Origin: Alphaproteobacteria bacterium
GTDB taxonomy: Bacteria > Pseudomonadota > Alphaproteobacteria > MPNO01 > UBA830
Length of the DNA stretch: 64,000 bases
Direction: 5' to 3'
Assembly (NCBI GenBank): GCA_964291215.2
Contig: OZ219790.1
Span: 320,001 to 384,000, forward strand
A program made the translations under genes and the position numbers. Under the pieces are notes generated by a model. It ran no database searches and was not told where the DNA came from. It saw only the letters and a list, made by a program, of their open reading frames with translations. The first letter of the stretch is position 1. Each line of letters opens with the position of its first letter. Shown here piece after piece: positions 1 through 27,647 of the stretch.

Positions 1-1485
1 GACAAACCCCGAGCAGCGCGGACGTTCGCCCTCGTCGGAACGGCGCATGCCGCGAACGACCCGCCGGTCCGGCTCGTAGTTCAACACGTCGTCGAGCCGC
101 GCAATATCGGCCTTGACTGTCTGAAGGCTGGCGCCGAACTGGATCAGGCCCTCGATCGGCTGGGAGAAGCTGCGCGCAAGGCTCTGAAAGGCGACCAGCC
201 CACCGACGGTCAGTACACCCTCCAGAAGGCGCAGACCACCGACGCCCAGAATGGCAACGGTAGCAAGTGCAGTGAGCAGCGGCGGCACGACGTTCAGAAC
301 GTTTGTCAACCGGCCGAGGTCCTGCTGAGCGGCGACGACGTTGGCATGCATGCCGGACAGGCGCGAGAACAGGTCGCCCTCGGTGCCGTTGGCTTTCAGG
401 GTTTCGATCATGCTGAGGCCGGCGACCGACGCACCCGCCACCTTGCCCTGTTCCTTGAGCAGGCGACGGCTGGCATTCTCCCGGGCGCGGGAAACCAGTC
501 GAAGCGCGAACAGGTTGATGACCGCCATCGCGAACACGACGAGCGCCAGGATCGTGTCGTAGGCCAGCATGACGCCCGCATAGGCGATCATGGTGAGCAT
601 GTTGACGGCATTGGTGGCCAGCTCGCCCGACACGATCCGCGCCACATTGTCGTTCGACGCAACCCGGTTGGAGATGTCGCCCGCGAAACGCTGCGAGAAG
701 AATGCCATCGGCAGGGTCATGACATGCCAGAAGAACTGCGAGGTCGCGACGAGCGAAAGCTTGGTTTCCATACGCGCGAGACAGTTCTGCTGGAACCAGG
801 TGAGCAGGCCTTGCAGGACGGTCACGACCGCGAGGCCGATGAGAAGCGGCACGACGAGATTCTCGCTTCTCACGACCAGAACTTCATCCACGAATACCTT
901 GGAGATCGTCGGCAGCGCAAGCCCTGGAACCAGCAGCGCGAGAGTCGCCAGTACAACGAACAGCAACGCGGTCCGCGCCCGGCCCAGACGGGCGAACAGG
1001 CCCTGCAGCAGACTCGGTCGTGCGCCGCCTCGCTCGAACTTCAGTGTCGGTTGGAAGGCGAGGCAGACCCCGGTGAACCCCTCGTCGAACTCCTGCAGGG
1101 ATATGCGGCGCGGGCCTTCGGCCGGATCGTTGATGTAGACGAAACCGCGTCGGATGCCCTCAAGCACGATGAAATGGTTGAAATGCCAGAACACGATCAT
1201 CGGGAAGGGAAGATCGAACAGGCGTCCCGGATCGCGGCGGAAGCCGCGCGCATCAAAGCCGAGTTCCCTGGCCACCCGCAGCATGTTGACCGCCTTGCTG
1301 CCGTCGCGCGACACGCCGCAGCGCACCCGCAATTCTTCCAACGGCACCCACCTGCCGTAGCGAGCAAGAATCATCGCCAGACAGGCAGCGCCGCATTCCG
1401 TCGCCTCCATCTGCAGGATGGAGGGTACGGCTCGCCTGCCGCCGCGCTTGCGGGACAGGTTCGGGCGTAACTTGGTAGGGCTCAC
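1..1485 (-). CDS. NHLP bacteriocin export ABC transporter, C39 peptidase/permease/ATPase (runs off window edge)
   Basis: Manual minus-strand translation from GTG 1485, overlapping the HlyD stop: MSPTKLRPNLSRKRGGRRAVPSILQMEATECGAACLAMILARYGRWVPLEELRVRCGVSRDGSKA, a C39 peptidase QxExxECGAACL motif, followed by hydrophobic TM segments. Absent from the ORF track because no stop lies in the window. Confidence 0.93.
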   Translation of the reverse strand, partial: MSPTKLRPNLSRKRGGRRAVPSILQMEATECGAACLAMILARYGRWVPLEELRVRCGVSRDGSKAVNMLRVARELGFDARGFRRDPGRLFDLPFPMIVFWHFNHFIVLEGIRRGFVYINDPAEGPRRISLQEFDEGFTGVCLAFQPTLKFERGGARPSLLQGLFARLGRARTALLFVVLATLALLVPGLALPTISKVFVDEVLVVRSENLVVPLLIGLAVVTVLQGLLTWFQQNCLARMETKLSLVATSQFFWHVMTLPMAFFSQRFAGDISNRVASNDNVARIVSGELATNAVNMLTMIAYAGVMLAYDTILALVVFAMAVINLFALRLVSRARENASRRLLKEQGKVAGASVAGLSMIETLKANGTEGDLFSRLSGMHANVVAAQQDLGRLTNVLNVVPPLLTALATVAILGVGGLRLLEGVLTVGGLVAFQSLARSFSQPIEGLIQFGASLQTVKADIARLDDVLNYEPDRRVVRGMRRSDEGERPRCSGFV

Positions 1486-2732
1486 TGTCCGGTCAACTTC
1501 TTCAGCAACGGAATCACCATGGCGATGGGACGCTGGCTTCCGACCTTGACATCGATACTGGCGAGCGTTCCGGGAATCAATGCTTCACTCGCTCCCTTTG
1601 CCGTGGTCCAGGCGAAACCGCTCGCCGTCGATGGATCGGGCGCCAGCGTCACGCGGCTGGCGTATGGCGGCCCGTTCTGCGAAAAGATCTGGGCGAGTTC
1701 CTGATTCTGCAACACGGTGACCATACCGCTGACGCTTGTCGGAAACTCCGATACGTTCTCGACCACACCCTTGACAAAGCCATGCGTCTCCGGCTGCGTG
1801 GTCGCAGGAGAGACCAGCACGCTCATTCCCGACTCGACCCGTTTTCCGTCGGCCGGCGGAATGTACATCAGTACCTCGACTTCTTCGCCCGAGCCGGTCT
1901 TGATACTGAGCACGGGCTGGCCCGCAACGAGTACCGAACCCAGGGCGGCCTTGATCTCGATGACGCCGCCTGAGACCGGCGCAAGGATTTGTTGCGCTTG
2001 CAACCGCGTACGGAGTTCGCGAGCCCGCAGGCGCGCCTCCTGAAGGCGGGTGTCGGCACTGCTCACCTGGACGCGGTGTTCGTGCAGGCGTGTCAACTCC
2101 CGCGCCTCCAGCGTCTCGAGCCGGCGGGTGGTTTCGAACAACTCCTGGACTGCGCGGTCAAAGGCCTGCTGGCTGCGCTCCAGAGTAAGCCGGGTCACGA
2201 CGCGCTCTTTGTAGAGCTGGCGGTGGCTGTCGAGGCGTTCGCGGGCGGTGTCCGCGGCCTGGCGGCCAATGCTCTCCAGCCGTTCAAGGCGAGCCTGCTG
2301 CTTGGCGACATTTTTTTTGAACAGCTGGTCCTCTGCCTCGAACGCCGCCTTGAGATTGTTCAGAGCCCGTTCGCTCTCGTCAACCAGGGTCAGCGCGCTC
2401 CGATAGCGTTCTGTCAAATCGGGATTGATGGTCTTGGCAACGATCTCTCCTTTTTCGACCGATTGACCGACCTTGAAGGGGATATCGGTCAATGTGCCCG
2501 TGTCGGCGGCTACCGCATCAATCACCGTGCCGCCGGTGTTCAGCAGTATTCCGCTGGCACTCACATAATTGGAAACGGTTCCCAGCACCGACCAGGCCAC
2601 CAGCGCGACCACGAATGCGATCAAGGCGCACAGCGCCACCCACTGCCTGGCCGAAACGACCGAAAGTGCACGGTCGATCTTCTCCGGTTCGGACAGCCGG
2701 TCAAGCGCTGCTTTTCTGAACAATTCCGCCAT
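1482..2732 (-). CDS. NHLP bacteriocin system secretion protein (HlyD/membrane fusion)
   Basis: MAELFRKAALDRLSEPEKID start, one TM helix, long coiled coil, C-terminal RPIAMVIPLLKK; start trimmed to ATG 2732. Confidence 0.92.
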   Translation of the reverse strand: MAELFRKAALDRLSEPEKIDRALSVVSARQWVALCALIAFVVALVAWSVLGTVSNYVSASGILLNTGGTVIDAVAADTGTLTDIPFKVGQSVEKGEIVAKTINPDLTERYRSALTLVDESERALNNLKAAFEAEDQLFKKNVAKQQARLERLESIGRQAADTARERLDSHRQLYKERVVTRLTLERSQQAFDRAVQELFETTRRLETLEARELTRLHEHRVQVSSADTRLQEARLRARELRTRLQAQQILAPVSGGVIEIKAALGSVLVAGQPVLSIKTGSGEEVEVLMYIPPADGKRVESGMSVLVSPATTQPETHGFVKGVVENVSEFPTSVSGMVTVLQNQELAQIFSQNGPPYASRVTLAPDPSTASGFAWTTAKGASEALIPGTLASIDVKVGSQRPIAMVIPLLKKLTGQ

Positions 2733-2804
2733 GTGTGCACACCAGGGCTCGGTTGCGGACGACGCCCTGACGGCCAAGGCATCGGGTGGGACGGCGAGCC
2801 ATCC

Positions 2805-4181
2805 TTATTTCGTATACACGATCCCGGGAGCGAGTTGCCATTTCGCATCGCGGGCCTCGCGGGCGAGATCGGGCACGCCCGCGATCCCGAGTCTTCGTGA
2901 CGTTAGGGCGCCAACCGCTTCCAGCAGGCGATAGGCTTCGACAATCACGTCGCGTTCAGCCGAAAGCGCACTGATCTGGCGCGTGACGACACGCCGTTCG
3001 GCATCCAGAACTTCCCGTGTCGTTCGCTCTCCGAACTCGGCCTCGCGCTTGATCCCTGCAAGCGCGGCACGTGATGCGTGAACCGCGGTCGCGAAAGCCG
3101 CCTGCCGCTGTCGGGCGGCTTCCAGGTTCCGCCACGCGCTTTCGACCAGTTGCGACGCATTGCGCACCGCATCAAGCCATTCGTTCCGGCGTTGGGCCCG
3201 AAGGTGTCTGGCTCGGCGAATCCGCGGACCTGTCACGCCCGCCTGATAAAGCGGCACGGTCAGTTGCAGCGTCAGGCTCATTTCAGTGTTGTCCGGAAGT
3301 ACCGTTCCGGTTTGTCTCTTGGCCGCAGCCCTGAGGTCGATCCGCGGGCCGAGCTCGGCCGTAGCGACGCGAACCGACGCCTCGGCAACGCGAATCGCGG
3401 CTTCGGCGCCGCGAACGGCGGGCCGCTGCGTCCGGGCTGTCCGGTGTGCTTCCTCCAGGGTCTGCGGCAGGCCGGCCGGCAGGCCGACCGCATCAAGACC
3501 GTCCGGCATCAGGCCGGTCAACCGGAGAAAGCGGGCTCTGTGGACTTTCAGTTCGCTCGTCGCCGCCACCAGTTCCGCTGCGGCAATCTCCCGTTCCGCC
3601 TCGGCCTGCGCGACATCGGCGCCGGTCCGGTCCCCGACATCGTATTGCGCCTTGACGTCGCCAACCTGCGCATCGAGGGCGGCAAGGGACGCTGCACGCA
3701 ACTCCACGACCCGTTTCGCCCGGAGTGTGTCAAGATAGACTGTCACGGCGCGAAGCAGAACGGTCTGTTCGCTGTCTTCCACGGAGGCATGGCTCCTTGA
3801 AACGCCTTCGACAGCCCTTCGGAGCGCAGCGGAGTCGCGGCCGCTGCGAAACAGGTTCTGCGTGATCGAGAATGTCCAGGAGCGCGGAGAAGAATACTGG
3901 GTTCGGTCAGCACCAAGAGGAAAGGACTGGTCGGAGACGGTCCTCTGTCGATTGGCGCTGGCGTTGAACTGGAGCGTGGGCAGCCAGGCGGAAACCGCCT
4001 CGGGCACATCCTGGTGGCGCGCGCGCGCAGCCTCGCGGACGGCGGCCAGACCCGGGTTCGACGCCGCGGCCGCGGCCAGAACCTCCTCGATGGTCAGCGC
4101 CGACGCCGGCGCCGCGGTAACCGCAAGGGCAGTGCCGAGCCAGGCAAGACACGAACCAGCGATGCGCAATCGGAAGTGCAT
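2805..4181 (-). CDS. TolC-family outer membrane efflux protein
   Basis: Signal peptide (..AVTAAPASA-LTIEEVL), NPGL/WLPTL and GERTTREVLDAE motifs; start trimmed to MHFRLR. Confidence 0.9.
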   Translation of the reverse strand: MHFRLRIAGSCLAWLGTALAVTAAPASALTIEEVLAAAAASNPGLAAVREAARARHQDVPEAVSAWLPTLQFNASANRQRTVSDQSFPLGADRTQYSSPRSWTFSITQNLFRSGRDSAALRRAVEGVSRSHASVEDSEQTVLLRAVTVYLDTLRAKRVVELRAASLAALDAQVGDVKAQYDVGDRTGADVAQAEAEREIAAAELVAATSELKVHRARFLRLTGLMPDGLDAVGLPAGLPQTLEEAHRTARTQRPAVRGAEAAIRVAEASVRVATAELGPRIDLRAAAKRQTGTVLPDNTEMSLTLQLTVPLYQAGVTGPRIRRARHLRAQRRNEWLDAVRNASQLVESAWRNLEAARQRQAAFATAVHASRAALAGIKREAEFGERTTREVLDAERRVVTRQISALSAERDVIVEAYRLLEAVGALTSRRLGIAGVPDLAREARDAKWQLAPGIVYTK

Positions 4182-4318
4182 TTTCCTGTAATCAGGTCTT
4201 GTGCGTTTCCGGAGCCTTTGGCGGCGGCCCGAGATCAGGCATATTTCCCGTCGGGCGGATCTCAGCCATCCACCACACGCCCGCCGGGCCGGGCCGCATC
4301 TTGCCATTGCCGTCCGGG

Positions 4319-5890
4319 TCATATGAAGACCGCCACCGGGTTGAGGTCGGCTTCGGCGATGGGCGTTTCGCGCCATCCCATCGCAACCGGTACATCGTAC
4401 AGGCGGCCGGGAGCAAAACGCGGCCAGAAGTGTCGCAATCCCGGCACGATGGTCCGGGCAACCGGCATGCCGATATCCGGCCGCGTCTGGTCGAGTACCA
4501 GAAATTCCATGCCCCTTGCTTCAACCAGCGCCCGGCAGTACTCGACATCATCCTTGATGTCGGTCGTTTGCGGCGCCGAATGGTCCTGGGCCAGACGCTG
4601 CGGTGTCCGCTTGTCCGGCGCAAGATAGGAATGTTCGGCAAGTGTCGCATTGCGCCACCACCAGAGGCATTCCGGATCGTCGTAGAGGTAGCCGTTGCCG
4701 TCGATGTCTACGTCTCGAACGGCGACCAGATACTGGTTCAACTCGCACAGTGCACGGAAGGCGGCAATGCGTGGTTCGAAATGGGCTCCGGCCGAATACA
4801 GGATGTCTTCGGCCTCCTTATCAGTCCGGCGCGACACCGCAACGAATACCGGGATACCGAGATCGGTGGTCGCATCAAGCATTCGGAGATCGCGGTCGAA
4901 GGACCGGTAATACTCGCGCGCGCTGTCGAAATAGGATTCGCCGAAGCTGTCGAAGTCGAGCTCGGGAAGCGACACCCGATTGTACCACCAGCAGGCAAAG
5001 GCATCGCGCTCCACCAGCTCGAAGAATCCCTGGAGAATCGCCTCCTCCAGCGTGTTGCCCGAGGCGCAGCCGTTCGAATCCGGACCGCAATAGACCTGGC
5101 CGTCCTCCAGAGGCGCGGCGAAATAGAGCATGGAAGTGGGCAGGTAGCGGTGACGCCCCCGAGTCATCGACCAGACCGGTGTCCAGTCCATCTCCACGGC
5201 AGGATCGAAGCGCTTCGGGACGTAATCGAATCGCGCTCCGCGCGCGTTGATCTCTTCGGAGTGGTCGTACTGCCAGTCGCTGAAGAGCTGGACCTTGTTG
5301 GGATGGATCGCCTCGCCGTTGCCGAAATCCTCCAGGCGCGCACGGCGGCGGATCTCGTCGCCATGAAAGGCGCCGGAAACGCGTTCGATCGCCTCGCACA
5401 ATGCGCTCGCCTCGGCCTGTTCGGGGCTGGCGCCCTTGCCCGAACTCTTGCTCCTGAGCGTGGCGCGCAGCAAGCGCAGATTGTCGCTCCGCAGTGCTAT
5501 GTTGCTGCCGGACCAGTAGACATGCAGCCACGGGTCCGTTTCGGTCGTGGAACGCACCAGTTGGGTGACCACGCCGCTCACCGGACTGACCAGATGACGG
5601 TAGCGGGCGATCGTCTCTCGAGGCGGCACCGAACGCGAGCCGCCGGAATTGGCCACTGTTCGGGGGCAGGGCTTGAGCATGACCGGAGCCGGCGCCCGGT
5701 CGGGGCGGTAGAGCGCCACGTCACCGCAGACCCCGCATTGCGGTCGGCGGAACACCCGGTGCCGGTCGCTTGCGAGATTGTAGGCATCGACCGAGAACGC
5801 GTGCTCATGAAGCGCCGCCCGCTCCCCGAAGACAATCCACTTGGCAATTTCTAGCGCGGCGAGACCGAGGATTGCCTCGATGAGCGGCAT
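4319..5890 (-). CDS. YcaO cyclodehydratase 1, C-terminal part (end of E1-like domain plus YcaO)
   Basis: RRPQCGVCG, SGKG..EAIER, SNGCASGNTLEEA, ELVERDA, VPGLRHFWPRFAPGRLYDVPV; close paralogue of 8023-10338. Confidence 0.92.
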   Translation of the reverse strand: MPLIEAILGLAALEIAKWIVFGERAALHEHAFSVDAYNLASDRHRVFRRPQCGVCGDVALYRPDRAPAPVMLKPCPRTVANSGGSRSVPPRETIARYRHLVSPVSGVVTQLVRSTTETDPWLHVYWSGSNIALRSDNLRLLRATLRSKSSGKGASPEQAEASALCEAIERVSGAFHGDEIRRRARLEDFGNGEAIHPNKVQLFSDWQYDHSEEINARGARFDYVPKRFDPAVEMDWTPVWSMTRGRHRYLPTSMLYFAAPLEDGQVYCGPDSNGCASGNTLEEAILQGFFELVERDAFACWWYNRVSLPELDFDSFGESYFDSAREYYRSFDRDLRMLDATTDLGIPVFVAVSRRTDKEAEDILYSAGAHFEPRIAAFRALCELNQYLVAVRDVDIDGNGYLYDDPECLWWWRNATLAEHSYLAPDKRTPQRLAQDHSAPQTTDIKDDVEYCRALVEARGMEFLVLDQTRPDIGMPVARTIVPGLRHFWPRFAPGRLYDVPVAMGWRETPIAEADLNPVAVFI

Positions 5891-6614
5891 CGGCGCGACG
5901 CAGGAGAGCGCCCCCTCCGCCGGTGCGCAGGAAATTCTCGACCTCGCGATTGCTGCGAAGCCGATGGGCCAGGCAGGCCCAGCACGGCCCGGCGTCGCCG
6001 GGCCGGAAAACCGGACCGAAAAGCGCCGTCAGGCCGCTGGGCGCGACCGGCAACCACGGAACTCTGGACGCCAGGTGACGGTGGTTGGCTGCGGCGCAGT
6101 CGTCACCGAGCAGGTCGTCGCACACGATGACCGAGAGGGTCGGGTTGTCGTCGGTCACGGTGACGCCCATCGCAGCGAGCGCGGCACCGAGGCCGTCGTC
6201 CGTCACCGCAACCCGTACCGCGTCCAGCCGCGCCTCCACCCAGCGCGGCGACGCGCCGCACGCGCTCCAGAAGGCCGCCATTTCCCGGCTGATCGCGGCG
6301 CCTGCGGAGACAATGTAGCCCTTCGACGCCAGCGAGACCAGCGCGGTCTGGACTTCGATCGCCGAATACCGGTCAGCCAGCGCCGCGGCGACTTCGTGGC
6401 GCGAGTGGCTGCCGTCAAGCAACGGCAGGATGTCGATGTAGCGCCGGCCGTGGAGGACGCCGCTGAACGCCTCGGATACGATCAGCGCGGTCATGTCGTC
6501 GTGAATGTGAAAATCGAGATGCGGCGCCAGCATCGGCCACTCGACAAGGCCGCGGTCATCCGCCAGACTGCACGGGATCACGCTCGGGGAGGGAGTAACC
6601 CAATCGACGGCCAT
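5805..6614 (-). CDS. YcaO cyclodehydratase 1, N-terminal part (RRE leader-binding/E1-like domain); frameshifted relative to 4319-5890
   Basis: Aligns with the N-terminal third of 8023-10338 (LAPHL, LLDGSH, FGPVFRPG..PCWACL). Similarity switches frame near 5911-5915. Confidence 0.88.
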   Translation of the reverse strand: MAVDWVTPSPSVIPCSLADDRGLVEWPMLAPHLDFHIHDDMTALIVSEAFSGVLHGRRYIDILPLLDGSHSRHEVAAALADRYSAIEVQTALVSLASKGYIVSAGAAISREMAAFWSACGASPRWVEARLDAVRVAVTDDGLGAALAAMGVTVTDDNPTLSVIVCDDLLGDDCAAANHRHLASRVPWLPVAPSGLTALFGPVFRPGDAGPCWACLAHRLRSNREVENFLRTGGGGALLRRADAAHRGNPRSRRARNCQVDCLRGAGGAS

Positions 6615-6624: not shown

Positions 6625-8010
6625 CTACCCGCTGTCCTTCGGCGGACCGCCGAGGATGAAGTCGCCGATAGTACCCTCGATCACCGGATCGAGGCCGGTC
6701 GCCCGTGCGAAACGCGCGGAGTTCCCCGTACCCAAGCCGCACGGGGAAAGACCGAGATCGGTCGCCACGAGATAGAGGGTCTGGTAGAGCGCCCCCACGT
6801 TGCGCAGGATCACCCCATAGGCGATCGATCGGTACTTCCACATGACCCTGGCGAAGCGGGCGCTGAACGCCAGCACGATCTGAGGGTTGGCGAGGTGCCC
6901 GGTCGCCATTCTCGCATCCTCCACGATCGCCTCCACCTCGGTCGTGCGGCCGGCGATCGCGACCAATTCATGCGTCGCTGCGTCGTAGTGGTACAGGCCC
7001 GACTCCAGACCGTCGCAGCGATCGACCACCGGATAGATCTCAAGTTCGTAGCTGGCACCGCCGGCGGGATACGGCCGTCTCGTGAATTCAACATCGCAAG
7101 AAGCCCCCGTGGGATCGCTGACCTGGACCGTGAAGCGTTCGAGAATCCGCGCGGAGCGGTCGAGCAGCGCGCCGAGGTCGGCCACGGAGATCGGACGGGC
7201 CTCGTCATACACCCGCTCTGACCGTCGCCGTTCGAGAATCCGGACGAGCGAGTCTCCTCCGGCGTCGTCCGGCGCAACCGGAAGCGCGATCCGCCGGCCA
7301 GGCCAGGGGGGACGGACGCCAGGCGGCGGATCGATCTGGCTGACGAACGGAAAGAGTCCGCCGATCGGATCACCATGCCAGCCCGGCCGATGATGCCAGT
7401 GATACAGCAGGTCATGAAACTCCCACTGCATCAACGCCTCGCTGCGCGGGTCGGCTTCCGCACGCCCGGTCTCCAGAAAGCCCTCGGCGGCCAGCACCCG
7501 CCGGACAACAGGAACCTCAAGGCGACTCGGATCGGGGAGATGGAAGCGTGTGCCGGACAGCGGAGATTCCAGTATCCAGTCCCGCCCAGAGCGGCGCAGG
7601 CAGGCAAAGCGGTCGAGGCTGGCCTCCGGCGGCGGCATGTCTTCGGCCAGGCGGGGCGCATGACCGTCCCACTGCGGCTGCATCACCGCCTGCTCGCCCG
7701 TCTCGTCGATCACGAGAAGTTCCATCCCGCGAAACCGATAGAGAGTCTGCAGCGCGACAAGATAGGAGGCGGCGCACGAAGGCCCGCCGGCCTCGATGAC
7801 CGCGTCGCGGAGTTCCCTCAGCGGGGCGCCGTCGCGAAGCAACATGTTGGCCGCTTCATAGGCTCGCGCGTAGGGCGCGAAAGGCGGGCCGGTTCCCAGC
7901 ACCGAGTCCTCGATGACAAGGGATCTGCCATCCGCAGACGCTGCCAGCTTTCGCCCGGCGGGCAGGCGGGCGAGGATCGCGGGCTCCCTGAGCAGATCGA
8001 AAAATCCCAT
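6625..8010 (-). CDS. SagB/ThcOx-family FMN-dependent azoline dehydrogenase
   Basis: WEFHDLLYHWHHR, RRSER, RRPYPAGGASYELEIY, WKYRSIAY, LYLVATDLGLSPCGLG motifs. Confidence 0.92.
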   Translation of the reverse strand: MGFFDLLREPAILARLPAGRKLAASADGRSLVIEDSVLGTGPPFAPYARAYEAANMLLRDGAPLRELRDAVIEAGGPSCAASYLVALQTLYRFRGMELLVIDETGEQAVMQPQWDGHAPRLAEDMPPPEASLDRFACLRRSGRDWILESPLSGTRFHLPDPSRLEVPVVRRVLAAEGFLETGRAEADPRSEALMQWEFHDLLYHWHHRPGWHGDPIGGLFPFVSQIDPPPGVRPPWPGRRIALPVAPDDAGGDSLVRILERRRSERVYDEARPISVADLGALLDRSARILERFTVQVSDPTGASCDVEFTRRPYPAGGASYELEIYPVVDRCDGLESGLYHYDAATHELVAIAGRTTEVEAIVEDARMATGHLANPQIVLAFSARFARVMWKYRSIAYGVILRNVGALYQTLYLVATDLGLSPCGLGTGNSARFARATGLDPVIEGTIGDFILGGPPKDSG

Positions 8011-11654: not shown

Positions 11655-11672
11655 CAGTTTGCTCCATATGAA

Positions 11673-14488: not shown

Positions 14489-14651
14489 CAGCCGCTCCTC
14501 CCATGCGAGAGGGCAACCCATAGGCGCGCGCGCCTATGCAGTCAAGGCCGAGAGCAGCGACACGGCGAACAAAATCAGCAAGCTCTCACACTTGGCAGGG
14601 TACCTGGGTAGTTACCAATATATTATGATATATATTGGGGCAACCCCGGCC

Positions 14652-16853: not shown

Positions 16854-17588
16854 CATGTGATATTGGACATGCTTGTTCGCCACAGGTCAAGCGGAATCCG
16901 CACCGAAACGGCCGGAAACACGGGAAAACAGGGGGATTTCCTGACCGGTGCGATAGGCCTCCTCAGAAGGGTAGGTCAGGATGTCTGAATTTTTCTATAT
17001 CGTGGTAAATCACGGTGGCAGCGGCTCGAACGCTGCGACGGGCCGGGGCATCGCCTTGTGACTTCGTCGTTTCGCGGACACTGCCCGGCCCTTCGGTTCC
17101 ACGGTGATCCCACGCTGCTAATCCGGCGACGACTGGCAAGATTTTCTCAGTTTGCGTCGCGCTGCAATCGTGCCGCCAAGGCTCGATGGGGCCTTCTTGG
17201 CACGAAAATTGTGATCAAGGAGGCGATCTGTGATGAGCCGAGCCCCAGGACCATTCTGTTGTCGCGATCGGCGGCGAACAACCGTGTCAGAGTGGCCGTT
17301 CTTGAAGTTGGTGGCACCGTCTCAACCCAAGTTGGCACTTTTTGCGGCCCGGAATTTTTATCGCGTTGATATAACACGATTTTTTTGGCGACCTATTTCA
17401 ACATGGCACTACATTCTGTTGAATTCTGTCAGCTTGTGAGACGGCTCCTCGTGCGGCGGGTTCGACACCAGCCGCCGAGGAGATTTCGGCAACCTCGGCG
17501 GTGCGTGTCCTGTCGGTTGACGATCAATGCGCGCAGGCGCGTGGTGACCCTGGTTCAGCATGCTCTCGCGGATTGATGTCCGGCACTT

Positions 17589-18972
17589 AGTTGTGTCAAG
17601 AATTGTCTGCAATTTCGGTCGTGGCATGGGTCTCCGCTGTTGGGGCTGCCGTCCTGGCGGGCCCGAGGGCCCGCCAGGACGGACAGAAATCCCGTCGTCA
17701 CGCGGCCTTTCGCATGCGCTCGCGCTGATGCTCCTTCAAGTGGATCATGTTCAGGTAGCGGCTGGCCTCCAGCCAGTCCTCGTGGATCTCGATCGCCAGC
17801 GCCCGCACCAGACGCAGGCAGCTCTCCTCGTTGGGGAAAATCCGCACCACCTGGGTGCGCCGCTTGATCTCCTGGTTGAAGCGCTCGAGCATGTTCGTCG
17901 ACTTCAGGTGCTTGTGGTGCGCCCGTGGCAGGCTGTAGAACGCAAACGTCTCCTCGATGGTCTCCTCGACCCACGACGTCAGCTTGGCGTAGTGCGACTG
18001 CCAGCGTGACAGCCACGCCGCGAGATCTCTCCGCGCCTCCTCGAGGTTGCCGCGGTCGTAGAGCCAGCGCAGCTCCTGAAGGCAGTCGTCGTCGCGCTTG
18101 CGCGGCATGTGGTCGAGCGCGTTGCGCAGAAAGTGCACGTAGCACCGCTGCTGCACCGCCTCGGGCACAACCTCGCTCACCGCCGCGCCAAGTGATCGTC
18201 CCGGACCACAAACCGCACAGGCCGCGCTCCTTGAGTTGCAGCAGAAACGCCTTCCACGACGAGGCGCTCTCACGGTTGGCGAGCTCTACCGCAAGAACCT
18301 GGCGCCGGCCGTCCCAGTCAATCCCCAGCGCAACCAGAACCGCCTGAGAGCCGATCACCCCGGCCTCGCGGACCCGCTCGTAGCGGGCATCCAGGATCAG
18401 ATAGGGAAACGGCTCCTCAAGACGCCGGCGCGCAAACGCCGCAAGGTCCGCATCCAGGCGCTTGACGATGTTCGATATCGTCGACGCCGAAAAACTCTGC
18501 CCGCAAAGCTCCTCCGTGATCCGCTTCACCTTCCGCGTCGAAACACCCTGCACGTACATCTCCGCAAGCGCTGATACCAGCGCCTTCTCAGAGCGCTGGT
18601 AGCGCTCAAATACCGAGAAAAATCCGCCACGATCCTGCGGAACCTGAAGCTCCAGCGAACCCACACGCGTCACAAGCGTCCGCTTGTAATACCCCGAGCG
18701 GTAGCCCACACGCGTCAACGTCCGCGCACCCTTCGAGGCCCCCAGAGCCGACGTCATCTCGCTCTCCAGAACCTCCTGCAGATAACCCCGGAGACTCTCG
18801 CGAAGAAAGTCCTCGTCCCCACCCAAAATCTCCTTGATCTCGGCGATCCCCGCCTTACGCTTGCTCTCGGTCATGGTGTGCCTCCTTCGTTGCACGAAGT
18901 GCTTCTCAATCACTGGCATGCCATGACCGGTCAGGCTTGAAAACCCTTTTGCAGAACCTTCTGTACACAACC
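17589..18972 (-). mobile_element. IS256-family element, frameshifted, with TIRs and 8-bp TSD
   Basis: EMYVQGVSTRKV, LILDARYERVR, QRCYVHFLRN, STNMLERFNQEIKRRT; ends GTTGTGTCAAGAA/GTTGTGTACAGAA; TSD CGGCACTT at 17581-17588 and 18973-18980. Confidence 0.92.
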
Positions 18973-19112
18973 CGGCACTTGTGGATGCCCCGCGCGGGGA
19001 TCAGATGCCCCGCGGCGAGTGCGGCGATCAACAGGTGGGCGGCGATGCGCTGGCCGGGCGCAATCCGGGCTCGGATTTCAATGAACGGAAGGTGGCCTCG
19101 ATATCCGTGTCC

Positions 19113-20553
19113 CGAGCATCCATGTTTCCTGGCAAGGTTTTTGCGGGTGTCTGCGGTGATGTTTTCTGTGGTTGTCCACAAGCGGTGTGGGATTTGCCCT
19201 GCGAGCGAGGCGACATGAAGCTTGTGGTCCCGGCGGCGGGTTGCCGTCCATTGGTCACGTGAACGCGGCTACCTTGCCGTCCCCGGGCACGTGACCGTCC
19301 GGGTTCCAGGTGTCCCAAGGCGGTTCGATCTCCTCGATGTCGGCCTCGACGATGATCTGCAGACATTCTCCCCAAGTCGTGTCGTAGTAGGGAGACTGTC
19401 GATACAGTCCCGATCGCGCTCTCGGCAGGGGTGAGGGCCATGAGGGTGTCTCCTTCGCTCACTCACCGGTGCTTCGGTCGACCAGCAACGCTGCTGTCGC
19501 AGCAAGGTGTTCGCCAGAGCTTGCGCATCACGGCGACAATGGCGACTTTGTGGGCCTTGCCGGCGGTCTTGTGGCGTTCGAACACCAGATCCGCGTTGAA
19601 GCGTGCTGCCGAGGTCGCGGCCAGGAGATCACGTGGCCTCCGGCGCCCGCCTCGGATATGCCGAGTACCGTGGCCACTGTCGTTGGCCATCGGCGCCACC
19701 CCGATCAAGGCTGCCGCCTGACGACGCTGCCGAGTTCGGGCATCCAACAAAGAAGGGCTGCGGCGGTCACTGGACCGGGGATCGAGGTCAGGGTACCTCT
19801 GCTCGGGATCACCGGCGATCACCGCTTTGATCGCCGCGCCGGCAATGCGGTCATCGAGATCGGCCGCCGAAGCCCTTGTGACGGTCTCGCCATCCACCTC
19901 ATCTGCCACTTGCCTCAACTTGGTCCGCACGTCGACAAGCGCGGCGCGCGATACTAGGAGATCCCCCAGGCAGTTGAGGAAGGCTTCCTGAGGAGCCACA
20001 GGCTCGAGATCGCACCGTGCCGATCTTGGCGTCAACGCGGTTGGCCCAAAGCCTCGGCGAAGCCCTCAACGGGCAGGACAACCTCGAAGCCCCGGTCATG
20101 AAGACACTGGTGAACCTTGCGGTGATAGCGGCCTGTCGCCCACCACACGGGTTACCTCGAGGCTGCGAAGCCACGTGCCCGCCAGCTCGTGGCGTCGTTC
20201 GTAAAACGACGCCCCAGATGTCCAGACTGGCCTTGCTGACCCCTGCTACTACCTTAACCATCGTCCCTTGTTCCTCGCCTTATGATGATACGGTTCAAAC
20301 CCAAGCATCCATTCAGGACGCAAGGGACGCCAAAGGAGGTTGCCACGCTCGGGAACGGCTCTATAAAGCCAAGGACGGAACGGCAATCTCCGCGGAGATC
20401 GTTTGATCCCCGCTCCCCTGTACGTTCTCACACAGGGGAGCGGAATCTCTTTGCAACCATAGCTCTCCCATAGTCGAGGTTATCCACATTTTCCCGCCCC
20501 CAACTGCTGTGGATGATTTCATCATCAAGGGGACAAAACCTAGTCATATAAGG
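19113..20553 (-). repeat. ~1.4-kb unit, copy A (contains degraded IS110); inverted relative to 22436-23816
   Basis: Shared ends CCTTATATGACTAGG and AAACATGGATGCTC; IS110 remnants GVAPMANDSG and GKAHKVAIVAVMRKL. Confidence 0.88.
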
Positions 20554-21918
20554 ACGGTCTCGATATCCCGGTCGCTGGTGCGCAGGCGCCCGCGTTGTCT
20601 TGTCGTCTGTGGCTGAAGCGCACGGCCGTTGCCCGGCCTTCTCGACAGTGGTCTCGTAGTGCCGGGCGACGGTGGAGAAGCGCTGCTCGAGACCGCTCTC
20701 CAGTACCTTGTCGTGGCGCCGGCCCTTGGCCGAGAGGTGGAGCTTTGCCGCCTCGAAGCTGTGCCGCCTGCGGTCAAGAATGGCGTCCTCGGCCCTCTTC
20801 CTGCTCTCGCTGACCACGTAAAGCCGCGCCATCCTCGCTGGCAAGGCGCCTGCACCTCGTGGTTGGTGCTGATGATCAGCAGGCCTCGGGCCCACCCTCG
20901 GGCGGCGCCGCCCGCGATCCAGCCGTGCTCGCCACGCGATGTTCGCCTCGGTGCCGGCGTCCATGACTACCGTCGGCTTCGCCGCCCGCCTCCAGCCTCA
21001 GCAGCGCCTCCGTGCCCGGTTCGCTTACGTTGCCCGGCAAGACCTCGCAACTGCGCCGAAAGCCCGCGCCGCGCAAGCGTGGGGCAATCGTTGCGCTTCT
21101 GCTTCGAGCGCCCGAAGCGGGGCAGCTTGCCGTCGGCGCGGCCGTGAACATTGGTGAGGTCGTAAAAGGCGATGGTGTCGGGGATGCAGCGCGCGCTCGT
21201 GGTTGAACAGCTCCTGGCGGCCCGGTGGTGCAGGTCGCCGATGCGGTACGGCGTCTTGCGCTCCGGATCCGGAAGCTCCGCGCTGTCATGGCGCAGCCAG
21301 TGCTCGCTGGCGAATCATCCTGGCGACGATCAGCGCACTCGTGATGCCGAGGTCGTGAAGCGCCTCGAGGCACAGGCCAGCCGACCGAGCGCGGGTTCTC
21401 GTGCTCGAGGCTGTCGAGGTTGACGGTCGCAATTTGCGTGCGTCTTCCTCCAGAGCGTCGGCGCGGAACCTTCGGGCCCCTGTTGACGATGTCCTGCGGC
21501 CTGCACGCGGCTTCGAACAGCGGCGGGCGGCCGTGGAGCAGCGCTTCGGCGGCAACCTCCTTCCGGTTCTTGCGCGCCACCGGATGGTCGGTGCCGAGGC
21601 AGGGTGCGCTGTCGACCTTGTCGCCGATGCGCTAAGAAAGCACGAGCCGGTGGACGGGTTTGCCGTCTGCGGTGCTACGGGTTTTGGTTGCCCTGATGAA
21701 CATGTTGTCTGGAGCCTTTTGTGTTGACGAGGCTCCGGATATACCGGGTTTGGCGGCGGGGTCGAGCGAATCGGCAACATTCTGGCACTACAACGCCCAC
21801 CCCGGACACGCAATCAGGAATGCAGTGGGTTCAAGAACAAGGCCAACAATATAGTATGTCGAACGGGGCGGCCGCATAAATTTCGCCTTCGACTGACGCA
21901 AAAAGTGCCAACTTGGGT
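20554..21918 (-). mobile_element. IS1634-family transposase remnant
   Basis: MFIRATKTRSTADGKPVHRL start at 21703; its left end is also present at 34290-34580. Confidence 0.7.
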
Positions 21919-22208
21919 CAAGGTCGGAACCGACATATCGACAACGAAATCCGCTCCCGAATGGACCTCCAGATCTGCCTACAACGCCCCCTCGTCGGAC
22001 GAAACCGGAAAAAAGAAAAGCCCTGAGCCGAGCCCCAACGCATTCGGATTTCGCGTCTCCGAATTAGTGCCTGAGAAAAATATAAAATGACTTGATTTTT
22101 TTGGTGAAATCGTAATATGGAGGAGGGCGAAGAACCCGCTTTGGGGCGGGAATTGGCCGATCAGACCGGAAATCCGCCGGATTTTCGGAAAACTTCGCGA
22201 GAATTGCC

Positions 22209-24995
22209 ATGCGAAACGTTCCACAACTGGAATTGGGCCAGGTTGCGATCGAGAAGATCGATCTCGGCGAAAACTCGCGGGATGACATGCGCGGGATTCA
22301 ACACGTGGATGCCGACCCGTCGACCCGGCTGCTCAGGATCCTGGAGGAGCGGATCTTTCCGGGAGTGTCCCACAGGAAAGCGCGTCCCGGCGCTGTGGAA
22401 GATCCTGGTGTCCTGAAGCAGGGCCCGGGGTATGACCTTATATGACTAGGTTTTGTCCCCTTGATGATGAAATCATCCACAGCAGTTGGGGGCGGGAAAA
22501 TGTGGATCTGTGGGAGAGTTATGGTTGCAGAGAGATTCCGCTCCCCTGAGCGAACATGCACAGGGGTGCGGGGATCAAACGATCTCCGCAGAGGTTGCCG
22601 TTTTGACCTTGACAGAGCCGCGATCGAGTTTGGTCGGCCAACCTCCCTTGACGTCCCTCGCTGGATGCTTGGGTTTGAACCCGTATCATCGTAAGGCGAG
22701 GAGCAAGGGACGATGGTCAAGATAGTAGCAGGGGTCAGCCAGTCTGGACATCTGGCGCATTGTTTTGCGAACGATGCCACGAGCTGGCGGGCAGGTGGCT
22801 TCGCGGCCTCGGGGTGAGCCGGGTGGTGGGCGACAGGCCGCTATCACCGCAAGGTTCACCAGTGTCTTCATGACCGGGGCTTCGAGGTTATTCTCGTCAA
22901 CCCGTTGCGGGCGCTTCGCCGAGGCGATGGGCCATCTGGCCAAAACCGACCGCGTCGACGCCAAGATCGGCTGGGCGATCTCGAGCCTGTGGCTCCGCCT
23001 TCCTCAAGAGCCTGGAGGATCTCCTGGTGCCGCGCTTGTCGACGCCAGGCAGGTGGCAGATGAGGTGGATGGCGAGACCGTCACAAGGGCCTCAGCGGCC
23101 GATCTCGATGACCGCATTGCCGGCGCGGCGATCAAAGCGGTGATCGCCGGTGATCCCGAGCAGAGGTACCCTGACCTCGATCCGGTGACCGCCGCGGCCC
23201 TTCTTTGCTGGATGCCCGAACTCGGCAGCGTCGGCAGCCTTGATCGGGGTGGCGCCGATGGCCAACGACAGCGGCCACGGTGCTCGGCATATCCGTGGCG
23301 GGCGCCGAAGGCCACGTGATCTCCTGTTCATGGCCGCAACCGGCACGCTTCAACGCGGACCTGGTGCGCCTCAAGACTGCCGGCAAGGCCCACAAGGTCG
23401 CGATTGTCGCCGTGATGCGCAAGCTCTGGCGAACACCCTGCTGCGACAGCAGCGTTGCCTGAAGCACCGGTGAGTGAGCGAAGGAGACACGGCCCTCACC
23501 CCTGCCGAGAGCGCGACCGGGACTGTCTCGACAGTCTCCCTCTACGACACGACTTGGGGAGAATGTCTGCAGATCATCGTCGAGGCCGACATCGAGGAGA
23601 CCGAACCGCCTTGGGACACCTGGAACCCGGACGGTCACGTGCCCGGGGACGGCAAGGTAGCCGCGTTCACGTGACCAATGGACGGCAACCCGCCGCCGGG
23701 ACCACAAGCTTCATGTCGCCTCGCTCTCAGAGCAAACCCCACACCGCTTGTGGACAACCACAGAAAACATCACCGCAGACACCCGCAAAAACCTTGCCAA
23801 GAAACATGGATGCTCGATCATCTGCACGAGCTGGTGAACGAGACGGTTCGCAAGTTCCCGGACCACGGCGATATCCGGGACAACACGAGGTACAGCTATC
23901 GGACGGTGCTGGAGAACGTGAGCCATCTGACGCCGGAAGTGCTGGAGAAGGTATCGCAGCTGGTGGCGGAGAGCGGCCATGCGATGGTCCGCAAGAGCAA
24001 GTCGGACGGGTCCTTTGCGGGGCCGCTGCGATTCGTTCGTGGTGCACTACCCGACGGACGTCAACCTGCTGTGGGATGCGATGCGTTGTCTGGTGCGCGG
24101 CCGCGCAGCCGTGCTCGCGGGGGTGGCGGCAGTGGCAGCATCGGAGCCGCGGGAAGCGCTTTCAGAAGGTTCGACAGACCCGGCGGCGGCGGATGGTACC
24201 TCGACGACAGCCGGGAGTTGGAGCGCAAGAGACGGTTCCGGCACTTGTGGAGAAGGGCGTCAAGGCCCTCGTGGTTCTCAAGGTCGTACCTCGAGCATGC
24301 CCGCCGGCAGATCGACCAGGTGGACCGCCGCCTAAGGCGAGAAGATCCCGCAGGAAGAGAAGGTGTTTTCGATCTTCGAGGAGCGCTGGTGCGTGAAGGG
24401 CAAGTGCCGGTGGAACTCGGCGTGCCGGTGGCCGTGCTGGAGGACCAGCACGGCTTCCTCCTGCACCACCGGATCCTGTGGGAGGGCAGTGACATGGACC
24501 ATGCGGTGCCCATGATCCGAGCAGTTTCGATCGCGGGTTCCACAGTCCCTCCAACCGGATTGCACTGGACGAGCTGCTGGACGCGCTGCCGAAGAAGGGA
24601 AAGCCTGGTCGGGCGGACCGGGAAGCTGACCCGACATTCCGGGAGATGCGCCGACAGCATCCGGCCGTGGAGTCGGCGATCAACAATCTTGAGCAACGCG
24701 GCATGGACCGGGTCCTGTGGGGCGGACGGCTTTGCGCGGATGGTGGCGCTGTCCATGGTCGCCTTCAATGTCCACCGCCTGCTGTTGCACAGACGGGCCC
24801 GACGACGGCGAAAACACGCCGCCTGACGGCGGCGTCCCTCCACCCCACCCGCAAAACCCGCCGAGAGCGAAAACGGAGCCGCTTGTCCGGCTTCTCGGCT
24901 GGAAGAGCCCTGATACCGCCGCGAATCAGCAGGAATCCCCCCGAAAACGGAGCGGGACCCGGAAGGGCGATCAAACCAGAAATTTCGCTGGAATC
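22209..24995 (+). mobile_element. ISNCY-like transposase pseudogene interrupted by the 22436-23816 unit
   Basis: IDLGENSRDDM, LKQG..|..HLHELVN, RCDSFVVHYPTDVNLL, VELGVPV, QHPAVESAINNLEQRG. Confidence 0.78.
22436..23816 (+). repeat. ~1.4-kb unit, copy B (degraded IS110 ORF ~22713-23463)
   Basis: AKTDRVDAKI, GVAPMANDSG..IRGGR, VAVMRKL; inverted homologue of copy A. Confidence 0.88.
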
Positions 24996-25136
24996 TCAAC
25001 CAAAACGGTCATTTCCGCGCGAGCACGAATTAGCATGGGATCGTCGTGCTTCGGTTCGCCGAAGCATTGACATTCGCCGCGCCACGCTGGATGGTAAATT
25101 GGACTGGACCTTTCACAAGCAGGCTCAGCCAGGCTT

Positions 25137-27647
25137 ATGGATCTCGACATTCTCATCGCCCGGGCGTCGCCTCCGCCAGAGCGCGTCGGCGACGGGCCGT
25201 TCGTTCCGGCTCCCACCGACCCCGACTCCCGGGCTCGCCGCGAAGCAAGACTTCTCGATGCCTTCGGTTCGCGGCATGCGCTGGCCCGGCATGCCGAGGG
25301 GCTGGAGATGTCCGTGGACGCCTATTTGGCGAGGTTCGGCGAGGTCCGCCTGGAGGGTCCTGCGCCGGACTGGGGTTGCGCCTTTCGAGAAATCCTTGCC
25401 CGGCTGGCCAATACCGAAACGCCCTTTTCAGCCGTCTATCCGTGGGCACGCGGCTGCATCGAGGCGGAATGGCCCGACGGCCTGCCGCACAGCGCCGATG
25501 CGCTGGACGGGGCCATTTCCCATCTCGAATGGCGTTTCCGCGCGATCCTGATGCAGACCATGCGGTATGAAGCCAGGCTGGGAGCATCGGGAGTCACTTG
25601 GGCGGCGCGCTTCGCCCGCAGTCCCGCGCTGGCCTACGCACTTGGCCGCACGCTGGTCGACTGGCGTTCGGACCTCGTTCGGATGCTGCGCCATGCAGCC
25701 GACGACCGGGCCGAATTGTCCCGACGCTTTTTCGACGGCGGAGACCCCGGGTTGCTGGTCGGTATCGAACAGGGGCTCGGCGACCCGCACGCCGGAGGAC
25801 GGTCGGTTACCATCCTGCGCTTCGCCAACGGTTCGGTCGTATTCAAGCCCAAGGACCTGCGAATCGCCAAGGTGGTGCGGGAGATCGTCGGCCTGATCTC
25901 CAGCGTCGAACTTTCGCCGCCCTCCACGGTGCCACGTGCGGGCTATGCATGGGAAACGGAATACGCGCCGCAACCGGTCGCGGGCGCCGGAGATGCCGAC
26001 CAGTTCTACCGGGCGCTCGGCGGCTGGCTGGCCTTGCTCCAGGCCATGAACGCGACCGATTTCTGGTTCGACAACCTGATCGCCGACGGCGCCACGCCAC
26101 GGTTCGTGGATTTCGAGACGGTGTTGCAGCCGGTCTCGGCGTGGCCGCCCCGGATACGACGCCTGGTCGATGAGGAGGCGATCAGCTTCAACATGCGGGT
26201 GGCCAACATCGGCATATTGCCGCTTCAAATGTCGATCAGGGAGGGTCTGGAACCGACCGACCTGGGGTGCCTCTGTCAGCCGGGGGAACATCGCACGCCG
26301 ATGGGCAACTCAGAGAACGGGGGTCTGTTTGTCTGGAAGGAAGAGCGATATGCTCCGCGCTACGAGTCCGGCGATTTCGCGGACAGCGCGGCGCATTTCG
26401 ACGCCCTTGAGGACGGCTATCTCCGGGTCGCCCGGGAGCTGGGGTCGGTGGCGATGCAGGATCAGATCCTGGCCACGCTCGAAAGCGTACCGGACGCGCC
26501 GCTTCGCGTCCTCCTGATTGACACCTGGACCTGTTATCGGATCGTTCAGGAATCCCTCCTCCCCGGCACCCTGTCGGACGGCGTATGGCGCGAGATCGTT
26601 CTGCACAAGATGCTGCCTCGCCACGCCGAGCTGACTGGCCCTCTCCGGGAGGCGGCAGTGCGCGACATGCGCCGCCTCGACATCCCGCTGTTCCTGACTG
26701 CGCCGGCCTCTCGGGACCTTCTGGGGGTGGAGGGCGAGGCGTGGCGGAACGTGTTCGAGAAGGATGCTATAGCCACCATGCGCGCTGCCTTCGGGACAAT
26801 GGCTGCAGCGACCGAACGCGAACGGCTGGCGTGGCTGCGTTCGTCGTTTTCCCTGCGCTCCGCCAATCCGCCTCGGCAGACGCCGGATCGCGGCCGACCG
26901 GCGTCGGCAAAGTCAGGAGATCTTCTGGCCTGGGCGGATCAGATCGCTACCGAAGTTCGGGACCTCGCCGTGACGAACGAGTGCGGGTATCCAACCTGGG
27001 TTGGCATCGTGCACGAGGTTCACTTCGGAATGCGTTGCATGGCGCCGCTCCCCATCGACATCCTGTCCGGCCGCGCAGGAATCGCTCAAGCGTTGCTCGA
27101 GTTGGGTGAAAGGCTCGGTCGTGCAGATCTGGCGGCCCTCGCGCGCGAGACCCTGAAGGGGGCGGCGCGCGATTATGCCGAGGCCATGGACTTCAGCCAG
27201 GACCTGGGAGTCGGATACGCGGTCGGCGCCGGCGGCCTCCTACACATGTTGGTGCGCGAGCCCTTTCTGCGGGACGATGCGCAAATGGTCTACCAAAGCG
27301 CTGCGGCAAAGGAAGCGTGGATGCAGTCCGGGAGCGACTTCGTGTCCGGCCTCGCTGGTTGGAAGGACGCGGTGCTGGCTCTCGGCGGCACGGTTCCGAA
27401 GCGGCACGGGCCACAACGGCCTTATGCGCCTTCGGCCCTGCCTCGACTTGCTCCCTGGCTGGACCCCGGCCATGCAAAGCCGGTCTGTGCCAACCGACGG
27501 GTGGCAGCGCTCATGAGGCGAGACCGTGATCGACTGGGAAGCTGGTTCGCCGAGAGATGGGCCGATGATCGGCACGATCTCTCGGGGGTGGATGGAATAC
27601 CCGCGCTTGCCGTCGCCTTCGTGCGTCTGGCGGACGGCCCGGCATAG
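25137..27647 (+). CDS. LanM-like protein: dehydratase (DUF4135-type) domain plus shortened LanC-like domain lacking Zn motifs
   Basis: GDPHAGGRSV, VFKPKD, TDFWFDNLIA, VDFETV, RVLLIDT, DIPLF; C-half has ILSGRAGIA and FVSGLAG repeats but no SHG/WCxG/CHG. Confidence 0.85.
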   Translation: MDLDILIARASPPPERVGDGPFVPAPTDPDSRARREARLLDAFGSRHALARHAEGLEMSVDAYLARFGEVRLEGPAPDWGCAFREILARLANTETPFSAVYPWARGCIEAEWPDGLPHSADALDGAISHLEWRFRAILMQTMRYEARLGASGVTWAARFARSPALAYALGRTLVDWRSDLVRMLRHAADDRAELSRRFFDGGDPGLLVGIEQGLGDPHAGGRSVTILRFANGSVVFKPKDLRIAKVVREIVGLISSVELSPPSTVPRAGYAWETEYAPQPVAGAGDADQFYRALGGWLALLQAMNATDFWFDNLIADGATPRFVDFETVLQPVSAWPPRIRRLVDEEAISFNMRVANIGILPLQMSIREGLEPTDLGCLCQPGEHRTPMGNSENGGLFVWKEERYAPRYESGDFADSAAHFDALEDGYLRVARELGSVAMQDQILATLESVPDAPLRVLLIDTWTCYRIVQESLLPGTLSDGVWREIVLHKMLPRHAELTGPLREAAVRDMRRLDIPLFLTAPASRDLLGVEGEAWRNVFEKDAIATMRAAFGTMAAATERERLAWLRSSFSLRSANPPRQTPDRGRPASAKSGDLLAWADQIATEVRDLAVTNECGYPTWVGIVHEVHFGMRCMAPLPIDILSGRAGIAQALLELGERLGRADLAALARETLKGAARDYAEAMDFSQDLGVGYAVGAGGLLHMLVREPFLRDDAQMVYQSAAAKEAWMQSGSDFVSGLAGWKDAVLALGGTVPKRHGPQRPYAPSALPRLAPWLDPGHAKPVCANRRVAALMRRDRDRLGSWFAERWADDRHDLSGVDGIPALAVAFVRLADGPA

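Follow-up and report, generated by a model that had tools for sequence, protein, structure and literature searches.

What does a peptide cluster make when two nitrile hydratase leader peptide (NHLP) precursors, YcaO cyclodehydratases, and a SagB-type dehydrogenase share one strand and a LanM-type gene faces away from them across 13 kb of insertion sequences (ISs)? We examined this question in a stretch of 64,000 nucleotides from an alphaproteobacterium (assembly GCA_964291215.2, contig OZ219790.1, positions 320,001 to 384,000), referred to here as the window. The original prediction, made from the letters alone, saw a candidate for a new pathway to a ribosomally made, post-translationally modified peptide (RiPP). 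The locus instead probably encodes a dehydrazole-type pathway, a class that is already known, and so is not a new pathway type. Dehydrazoles, described in 2023, combine an NHLP precursor with a YcaO, a dehydrogenase, and a zinc-free LanM-type dehydratase, as exemplified by carnazolamide (PMC10676384). With a probability of about 0.78, we read the locus as a dehydrazole-type proteusin cluster that yields exported chains of azoles and dehydro-residues from two 37-residue cores.

The reference system is the cca cluster of Chryseobacterium carnipullorum, with CcaA, the YcaO CcaB, the dehydrogenase CcaC, and the LanMbC enzyme CcaM (PMC10676384). Four defining features of a dehydrazole/LanMbC cluster were found here: DUF4135, a zinc-free cyclase-like domain, a nearby YcaO, and an NHLP precursor with a Ser/Thr/Cys-rich core. 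The minus-strand operon runs in the order precursor A, precursor B, core-less NHLP protein, YcaO1, SagB, YcaO2, TolC, HlyD, and C39 ABC transporter (Table 1). Much of the predicted layout was recovered, including one operon with two NHLP precursors, each with a double-Gly site and a 37-residue core, a leader protein that lacks a core, a type I exporter of TolC, HlyD (above its TIGR03794 cut-off), and C39 transporter, and an intact, divergent LanM-like gene that forms a single DUF4135 open reading frame (ORF). The cluster extends beyond the left end of the window, where the truncated transporter (ABC1) is completed to 729 residues. The HlyD adaptor and peptidase ABC transporter, identified by profile, and the second, peptidase-less ABC transporter, assigned from its translation, correspond to the three-gene NHLP export set that adjoins NHLP genes (TIGR03794/03796/03797; PMC2887384).

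The core sequences carry a marked three-residue register. Each core is uncharged, with Ser, Thr, or Cys at 18 of 37 positions. In core A, these residues occupy 12 of 12 every-third positions, a result reached in none of 5000 shuffles, and in core B, Ser or Thr occupies 11 of 12 (p = 0.001 by shuffling). The remaining six Ser/Thr of core A each directly precede an every-third position, and all 18 Ser/Thr/Cys of this core fall on a predicted azole position or one before it; core B contains one off-register Ser-Thr pair. Among the 27 Ser/Thr/Cys-rich cores of 33 found (the six others were excluded, and related cores are not independent), X-[ST]-[STC] triplets occur 100 times versus 65 in shuffled cores (0 of 2000 shuffles). 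Two characterized systems suggest a chemical meaning for this register. CcaM dehydrates only serines that come before an azole, and does so leader-independently (PMC10676384), and nostatin A, the product of the nst cluster of a Nostoc sp., consists of triplets of dehydroalanine or dehydrobutyrine (Dha/Dhb), azole, and a further residue (PMC11583998). A precursor leader matches PDB 8TB1 (E = 8.3e-5). No further precursor was found in the genome; TIGR03793 has one more match there, to the alpha subunit of a genuine nitrile hydratase. In related loci, extra NHLP precursors with aromatic-rich or Cys-Cys cores stand beside triplet-type ones (L011:8517-9347, L013:4521-5399, and L054:10143-10538). 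In locus L016, a third precursor A copy, now broken, lies upstream of the LanM-type gene (L016:7307-7594), a trace of rearrangement.

The LanM-type enzyme matches DUF4135 (PF13575) over residues 163-521 with E = 4e-58. A family search returned 79 proteins, namely, 74 full-length compact members (45-100% identity, 822-912 residues), four partial ones, and one ordinary LanM at 26%. Eight of the nine CylM residues named in PMC4550811 are kept, in 51-52 of 52 aligned sequences: D252, H254, K274, D347, N352, D364, R506, and T512 correspond to D216, H218, K237, D308, N313, D325, R457, and T463. The DxH motif (CylM D347/H349) is incomplete, with D308 kept and the His replaced by Trp310 in 52 of 52.

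These residues bear on whether the protein might instead act as a peptide kinase of the EmbM/phospeptin type, leaving phospho-Ser/Thr on an azole peptide. A LanM-like enzyme with a phosphorylated product is known (PMC9259500), and the replaced His349 and the shortened C-terminal domain would suit such a role. All four CylM elimination residues are nonetheless retained (D216, H218, and R457 in 52 of 52, T463 in 51 of 52), and the Ser-before-azole register agrees with the CcaM rule. The altered elimination residues of the EmbM type, which we take to be the ones changed in EmbM, do not occur here. We consider a kinase improbable and a dehydratase the better description.

The enzyme had been described as cyclase-less, which does not hold. 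A helical C-terminal domain spans residues 593-833 and aligns to the start of the LicM2 cyclase; this zinc-free LanC-like remnant of ~230 residues carries invariant motifs and is ~120 residues shorter than in the long relatives. The cyclase-like domain measures 228 residues. Of 23 longer relatives, 20 have 324-371 residues and the remaining three have 252, 294, and 295; the shortening is mainly one gap of ~90 residues after position 769. PoyF, named earlier as the analogue, is presumably a stand-alone dehydratase domain without a cyclase-like part. Such a lack was not found here, and CcaM is the closer counterpart. The zinc-ligand motif (WCHG/CHG-type) occurs in 0 of 78 family proteins, two loose pattern matches lying outside the zinc motif. 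With the Cys/Cys/His zinc site of class II LanMs absent and a TIGR03897 score of 250 bits (cut-off 304), the enzyme is not a class II LanM. Its predicted fold (mean predicted local distance difference test score, pLDDT, of 93.7) best matches LicM2 and CylM, with class III CuvL at only E = 1.4e-3. Of the 150 best representatives, a loose pattern picks out a zinc-like motif in 14, and Trp occupies the His349 position in 91. In a quick tree of 49 dehydratase domains (P0153, P0156, and P0288, where the anchor motif is absent, were left out), the 12 compact proteins form one branch (support 97-100) within zinc-free relatives, apart from 11 zinc-motif LanMs (support 100). The compact clade adds an abundant, uncharacterized sub-clade to these enzymes, and a member without about a third of the domain that CcaM needs could map the minimal azole-reading dehydratase.

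A remnant with conserved residues could also make zinc-independent lanthionine-type bridges, giving a cyclized azole-lanthipeptide hybrid. C784, H757, and H813 are conserved in 47-51 of 52 sequences, class III cyclases function without zinc (PMC10676384), and nostatin A contains a bridge derived from Cys and Dha (PMC11583998). The cores offer little for such chemistry, however, as precursor B is Cys-free and both Cys of precursor A fall on azole positions, where relatives often have Thr (at both in L014 and L016, at one in L017). Lanthionine is likewise absent from carnazolamide in the account of PMC10676384. We regard bridge formation as highly improbable and chains of azoles and dehydro-residues as the expected outcome.

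Whether the LanM-type gene belongs to the cluster at all could be judged from related loci. In the nine other loci examined that hold a full-length compact member (L014-L017, L018, G002, G004, G026, and G049), a YcaO, SagB, NHLP precursor, and core-less protein lie within ~25 kb in every case. The gene directly follows SagB in G002, G004, G026, and G049 and is first in the precursor operon in L016. A YcaO lies within ten ORFs of the DUF4135 gene in 9 of 9 other loci; in the window, nothing but IS DNA and three small cluster genes separates the two. Three longer zinc-free relatives that were viewed (L019, L053, and L055) also adjoin YcaO genes. An unrelated neighbor and a plain polyazole product might be supposed from the 13-kb distance and opposite strand seen here, but the contiguous relatives refute this idea, the gene having its place in the cluster at all nine other loci and the common DNA stopping at its stop codon in four of four near relatives. 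We find such an accident barely conceivable. The predicted membership of the LanM-like gene, for which contiguous homologous clusters were sought, is thereby borne out.

The DNA between the two arms is a pile of mobile elements. Another copy of 97.7% of positions 11701-25136 exists in this very IS-rich genome, and the pile comprises an IS66-type element, Transposase_29, Mutator, IS110-type, and ISNCY remnants. A Dam-like methylase is carried on the 2.36-kb IS66-type element (~12260-14620), which has seven other whole copies at at least 97% identity and therefore looks recently active; the methylase itself has ten full copies at at least 98%, including this one. We rejected the methylase as a cluster member because it is IS cargo. 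The separation by IS debris and one methylase is thus correct as to the debris, while the methylase is not a separate host gene. In L017, the conserved flanking blocks are ~100 bp apart and the genes 266 bp apart, versus ~13.3 kb of IS here. Some native DNA is retained upstream of both the precursor A ORF (~45 bp) and the LanM-type gene (88 bp). In the L017 intergenic region, a scan for promoters gave no match.

The prediction of two fused YcaO enzymes flanking the dehydrogenase holds in full for YcaO1, which is intact; YcaO2 is present here as two ORFs, though whole in relatives. YcaO2 orthologues are intact (765-767 residues) in L014, L016, and L017 and read unbroken in L015, and L014 and L017 possess the five positions deleted here. 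A 264-bp contig of sequencing run X1 spans the deletion site without differences at a depth of 48.5, which ruled out an assembly error. In run X2, a 451-bp contig is identical save for five more bases, and its YcaO2 frame is open. Because one contig keeps the deletion and the other has the open frame, we conclude that the lesion is real and recent; these are contigs from two runs of one study, and X1 may be the source sample, so that they speak to the reality of the lesion and not to independence. The change is the loss of one unit of a 5-base tandem repeat that differs between the two runs, and it could be a slippage-type switch. Across window positions 4300-8100, the YcaO2-SagB region is present in each of runs X1-X3 as several divergent versions that are 85-99% alike, an indication, from this one study, that a sample holds more than one carrier.

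Twin YcaO genes were rejected as a fixed feature: there is a single gene in G004 and in G026, a pair at 97-98% identity in G002 and in G049, and a pair at 60% in the window clade. YcaO1 and intact YcaO2 orthologues share 60% identity overall and 55% in the recognition element, and the leaders of precursors A and B share 47%; these values would fit one YcaO per precursor, as PMC10676384 suggested elsewhere. As only YcaO1 is intact in this strain, only one product may be made if that pairing applies.

The lesion raises the possibility that the pathway type is right but that the copy in this strain is silent or in decay and gives little or no product. The 5-base deletion in X1 and the ~13.3 kb of IS in the place of ~100 bp, in so IS-rich a genome, both point in this direction. 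On the other side, the other ten cassette genes are open, the short upstream segments are retained, a single YcaO is enough in G004 and G026, and the X2 contig indicates that the lesion is recent. We hold a silent copy to be a real possibility, at somewhat worse than even odds.

The whole cluster also appears to be mobile. The 18-kb cassette, running from the stop codon of the second ABC transporter to that of LanM, has 83-91% DNA identity in four near-relative genomes, and in all four of them the similarity breaks off at both edges. Their record titles name Alphaproteobacteria (two), Gammaproteobacteria, and Ca. Porisulfidus. In the same order of relatives, RecA identities to this genome are 79, 73, 67, and 69%, and LanM identities are 91, 86, 89, and 83%; RecA of this genome is closer to the two alphaproteobacterial records, which makes an alphaproteobacterial host likely. 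Genome G002, from the same genus, shows the reverse (RecA 86%, LanM 56%). Since cassette DNA and LanM identities exceed RecA identity, the edges are sharp, and G002 is reversed, these comparisons point to recent transfer of the whole cassette, which appears to have moved between Alpha- and Gammaproteobacteria. We take Porisulfidus to be a gammaproteobacterial sponge inhabitant, and this name is the one hint of a sponge habitat. The compact enzyme occurs in 2 of 401 sampled genomes of the class, including this one. So sharply bounded a moving cassette suggests selection for the product. A plasmid search gave 33 records, none with at least 80% query coverage; the best match was a long zinc-free LanM on a Thalassospira marina plasmid, beside a YcaO and a RiPP precursor.

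Related clusters differ in their accessory genes. The Thalassospira marina plasmid locus (L055, NZ_CP024200.1) has a long-type zinc-free LanM/YcaO cluster with a P450 and an S53 peptidase, and L053 (G437:C2) has another, in which three precursors are accompanied by two beta-hydroxylases. At L052 (G459:C1:788000-807999), a second NHLP-type exporter set occurs together with a third YcaO, with no SagB or LanM seen in 20 kb. Candidate tailoring genes (radical SAM, PhyH dioxygenase, Asp/Asn beta-hydroxylase, sulfotransferase, and phosphotransferase) lie by related clusters at L007:4166-5659, L007:14915-16045, L009:15896-16693, L013:8144-8662, L018:16895-17989, and L050:5203-6234.

The core-less NHLP protein belongs to a family of 66 proteins of 71-129 residues, none with a double-Gly motif, all of which end ~17 residues or fewer past the last conserved strand. 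It is present in exactly the five of 61 genomes that carry the compact LanM (for 18 of these 61, completeness is below 90% or contamination above 5%). Its alignment with the MprE7 leader is free of gaps (E = 1.1e-15), and its Q26, A33, and Y36 match MprE7 Q7, A14, and W17, with A33 and Y36 invariant in 43 of 43. Three of five helix-1 contact positions are thus kept or conservatively changed (Q, A, and Y for W), whereas at the W17 position all seven of the precursors aligned carry Arg, Lys, or His. In MprE, the helix-1 contact positions matter for YcaO engagement (PMC12455567). A predicted complex of the core-less protein with YcaO1 residues 15-345 scored 0.38 (best of three controls, 0.00), with runs sharing at least 42% of contacts and a partner pLDDT of at least 75. 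Of 157 solved pairs, 116 reached the mark used for this score, as did 2 of 215 mismatched ones, with only 18 of the 157, and both mismatches, at or below 0.60, and likeness to LynD-PatE-type complexes may inflate the score; the prediction is weak backing for docking. In the ESM Atlas, the protein falls only in unnamed or NHLP clusters (0.80-0.90).

A possible explanation would involve a split leader, in which the core-less protein gives the helix-1 contact in trans and the precursors contribute no more than the L(X)4L strand and core, with a half-barrel Trp-containing LanMbC reading the azoles and the 18-kb cassette being shared community-wide across bacterial classes. We put this forward as a doubtful proposal, against which the long-type cluster L053 counts, as it has the same precursor change and no core-less gene in the 20 kb read. 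If it does act in trans, a dedicated core-less NHLP protein would represent a type of proteusin-biosynthesis helper that is so far undescribed. No account of it or of this clade was found in the literature searched, which did not extend to most subscription papers or to the cluster-map supplement of PMC10676384.

The dehydrazole-type reading joins the observed gene content, motifs, core pattern, co-occurrence, and YcaO2 break to chemistry, and an order of steps, taken wholly from CcaM and nostatin A. The YcaOs would cyclize every third Ser/Thr/Cys of both cores to azolines, which SagB would oxidize to azoles. The LanM-type protein would phosphorylate and then eliminate at the Ser that immediately precedes each azole; cleavage at the double-Gly site and export through HlyD/TolC would fall to the C39 transporter. 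The predicted maximum for precursor A is 12 azoles (from two Cys, four Thr, and six Ser), five Dha, and possibly one Dhb, and for precursor B, 11 in-register azoles and four Dha. An N-terminal Dha in product A would likely hydrolyze to a pyruvyl cap after cleavage, as in lanthipeptide chemistry. All of these numbers are upper bounds because CcaB modified just 8 of 20 Ser/Thr/Cys residues (PMC10676384). The predicted origin of azoles from YcaO/SagB and of dehydro-residues from a LanM-type and not a LanB-type enzyme is well supported.

Several observations weigh against this reading. The precursors match the NHLP profile TIGR03793 (E = 2e-10 and 1.5e-6) at 40 and 28 bits, under the curated cut-off of 50.9. 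Plain [ST][STC] pairs in the 27 cores are not above shuffles (138 versus 142); only the register is. The modest extent of modification by CcaB belongs here as well. The invariant Trp310 stands where CylM has His349, and CylM-H349A retained only little activity (PMC4550811). The cyclase-like domain is shortened, while CcaM needs its cyclase domain for dehydration (PMC10676384). CcaM and NstG, its nostatin A counterpart, were absent among 20 candidates looked up, so that kinship is by architecture and context only; a profile search aimed at the two found neither, and a second search returned essentially the same compact family. Finally, there are signs of decay: YcaO2 is broken, and the shared promoter region holds 13 kb of IS.

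Table 1. Features of the cluster, with positions in the window unless noted.
Feature	Position	Strand	Basis or remark
Second ABC transporter, 977 aa	G000:C1:316358-319291, outside window		Cassette left edge; assigned from translation
C39-peptidase ABC transporter, NHLP export/cleavage type	1..1485	-	TIGR03796, 609 bits on 495 aa within window
HlyD-family NHLP secretion adaptor	1482..2777	-	TIGR03794, 256 bits (cut-off 156)
TolC outer-membrane channel	2805..4376	-	TIGR01844, 243 bits (cut-off 225)
YcaO2 cyclodehydratase, split near 5893 into 5805-6614 and 4319-5890	4319..6614	-	5-base deletion
SagB/ThcOx-type flavin dehydrogenase (azoline to azole, by family)	6625..8010	-	TIGR03605, 154 bits (cut-off 78)
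YcaO1, intact fused RRE (recognition element)/E1-like/YcaO cyclodehydratase, 771 aa	8023..10338	-	TIGR03882 and TIGR03604
Core-less NHLP protein, 96 aa	10408..10698	-	Folded leader domain without L(X)4L, double-Gly site, or core
Precursor B, 139 aa; core 10779-10889	10776..11195	-	Cys-free 37-residue core
Precursor A, 129 aa from the likely start at 11654, as for L015-L017; core 11268-11378	11265..11696	-	37-residue core
IS pile in divergent precursor/LanM intergenic region	11741..25048		Genome copies
Compact LanMbC-type dehydratase, 836 aa	25137..27647	+	Cassette right edge; DUF4135 and shortened zinc-free LanC-like domain

Elsewhere in the window, a Fic protein (35168-36349), an AbiEi/AbiEii toxin-antitoxin pair (37334-39018), and a fragmented PLD/helicase gene (39056-43408) were noted, as were adjoining GH3-family and penicillin-amidase-family genes (56974-61013).

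How, then, does the cluster compare with known systems? Like that of carnazolamide, it combines an NHLP precursor, a YcaO and dehydrogenase, DUF4135 fused to a zinc-free cyclase-like domain, and a Ser/Thr/Cys-rich core with Ser before azole sites. It differs in an enzyme of 836 versus 1015 residues, with a cyclase-like part of ~230 versus ~370, and in its gene set, which has a pair of precursors, a single dehydrogenase alongside two divergent YcaOs, and a core-less NHLP protein. The epimerase, S-methyltransferase, and S8 protease of the carnazolamide cluster do not occur here, where the C39 ABC/HlyD/TolC set would export and cleave. No activity was seen for carnazolamide in the account of PMC10676384. 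The uncharacterized dehydrazole cluster of an uncultured Ca. Thioglobus, with two YcaO/dehydrogenase pairs, one LanMbC, and several precursors, is similar in its two YcaOs, single LanMbC, and several precursors with divergent leaders, and its authors propose one YcaO per precursor (PMC10676384). That cluster has two dehydrogenases versus one here, and the text does not mention a core-less protein for it. Locus L019 (two YcaOs, SagB, a 975-residue zinc-free LanM, and a nitroreductase) has a similar layout to the Ca. Thioglobus cluster, and its LanM lies on the same side of our tree as the compact clade.

Nostatin A, which is cytostatic at low nanomolar levels (PMC11583998), is also an NHLP proteusin made with a YcaO, an oxidase, and a LanM-like enzyme, and the every-third register found here matches its triplets. 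Unlike our cluster, it involves the 1075-residue NstG and two radical SAM enzymes, and its product is a 30-mer with alkyl-proline and a thioether bridge. As in MprE/MprC/MprD (PMC12455567; PDB 8TB1), an L(X)4L motif in the NHLP leader would be read by a fused YcaO; a single Mpr leader bears both the helix-1 contact face and L(X)4L, whereas here the face is on the core-less protein and L(X)4L on the precursors. The claim of an uncharacterized combination falls for the enzyme set, which matches dehydrazoles and nostatin A; the cores themselves are uncharacterized. What sets the locus apart from the described clusters is a clade of compact 836-residue enzymes in which Trp replaces the catalytic His, a core-less NHLP protein, and a probably transferred 18-kb cassette.

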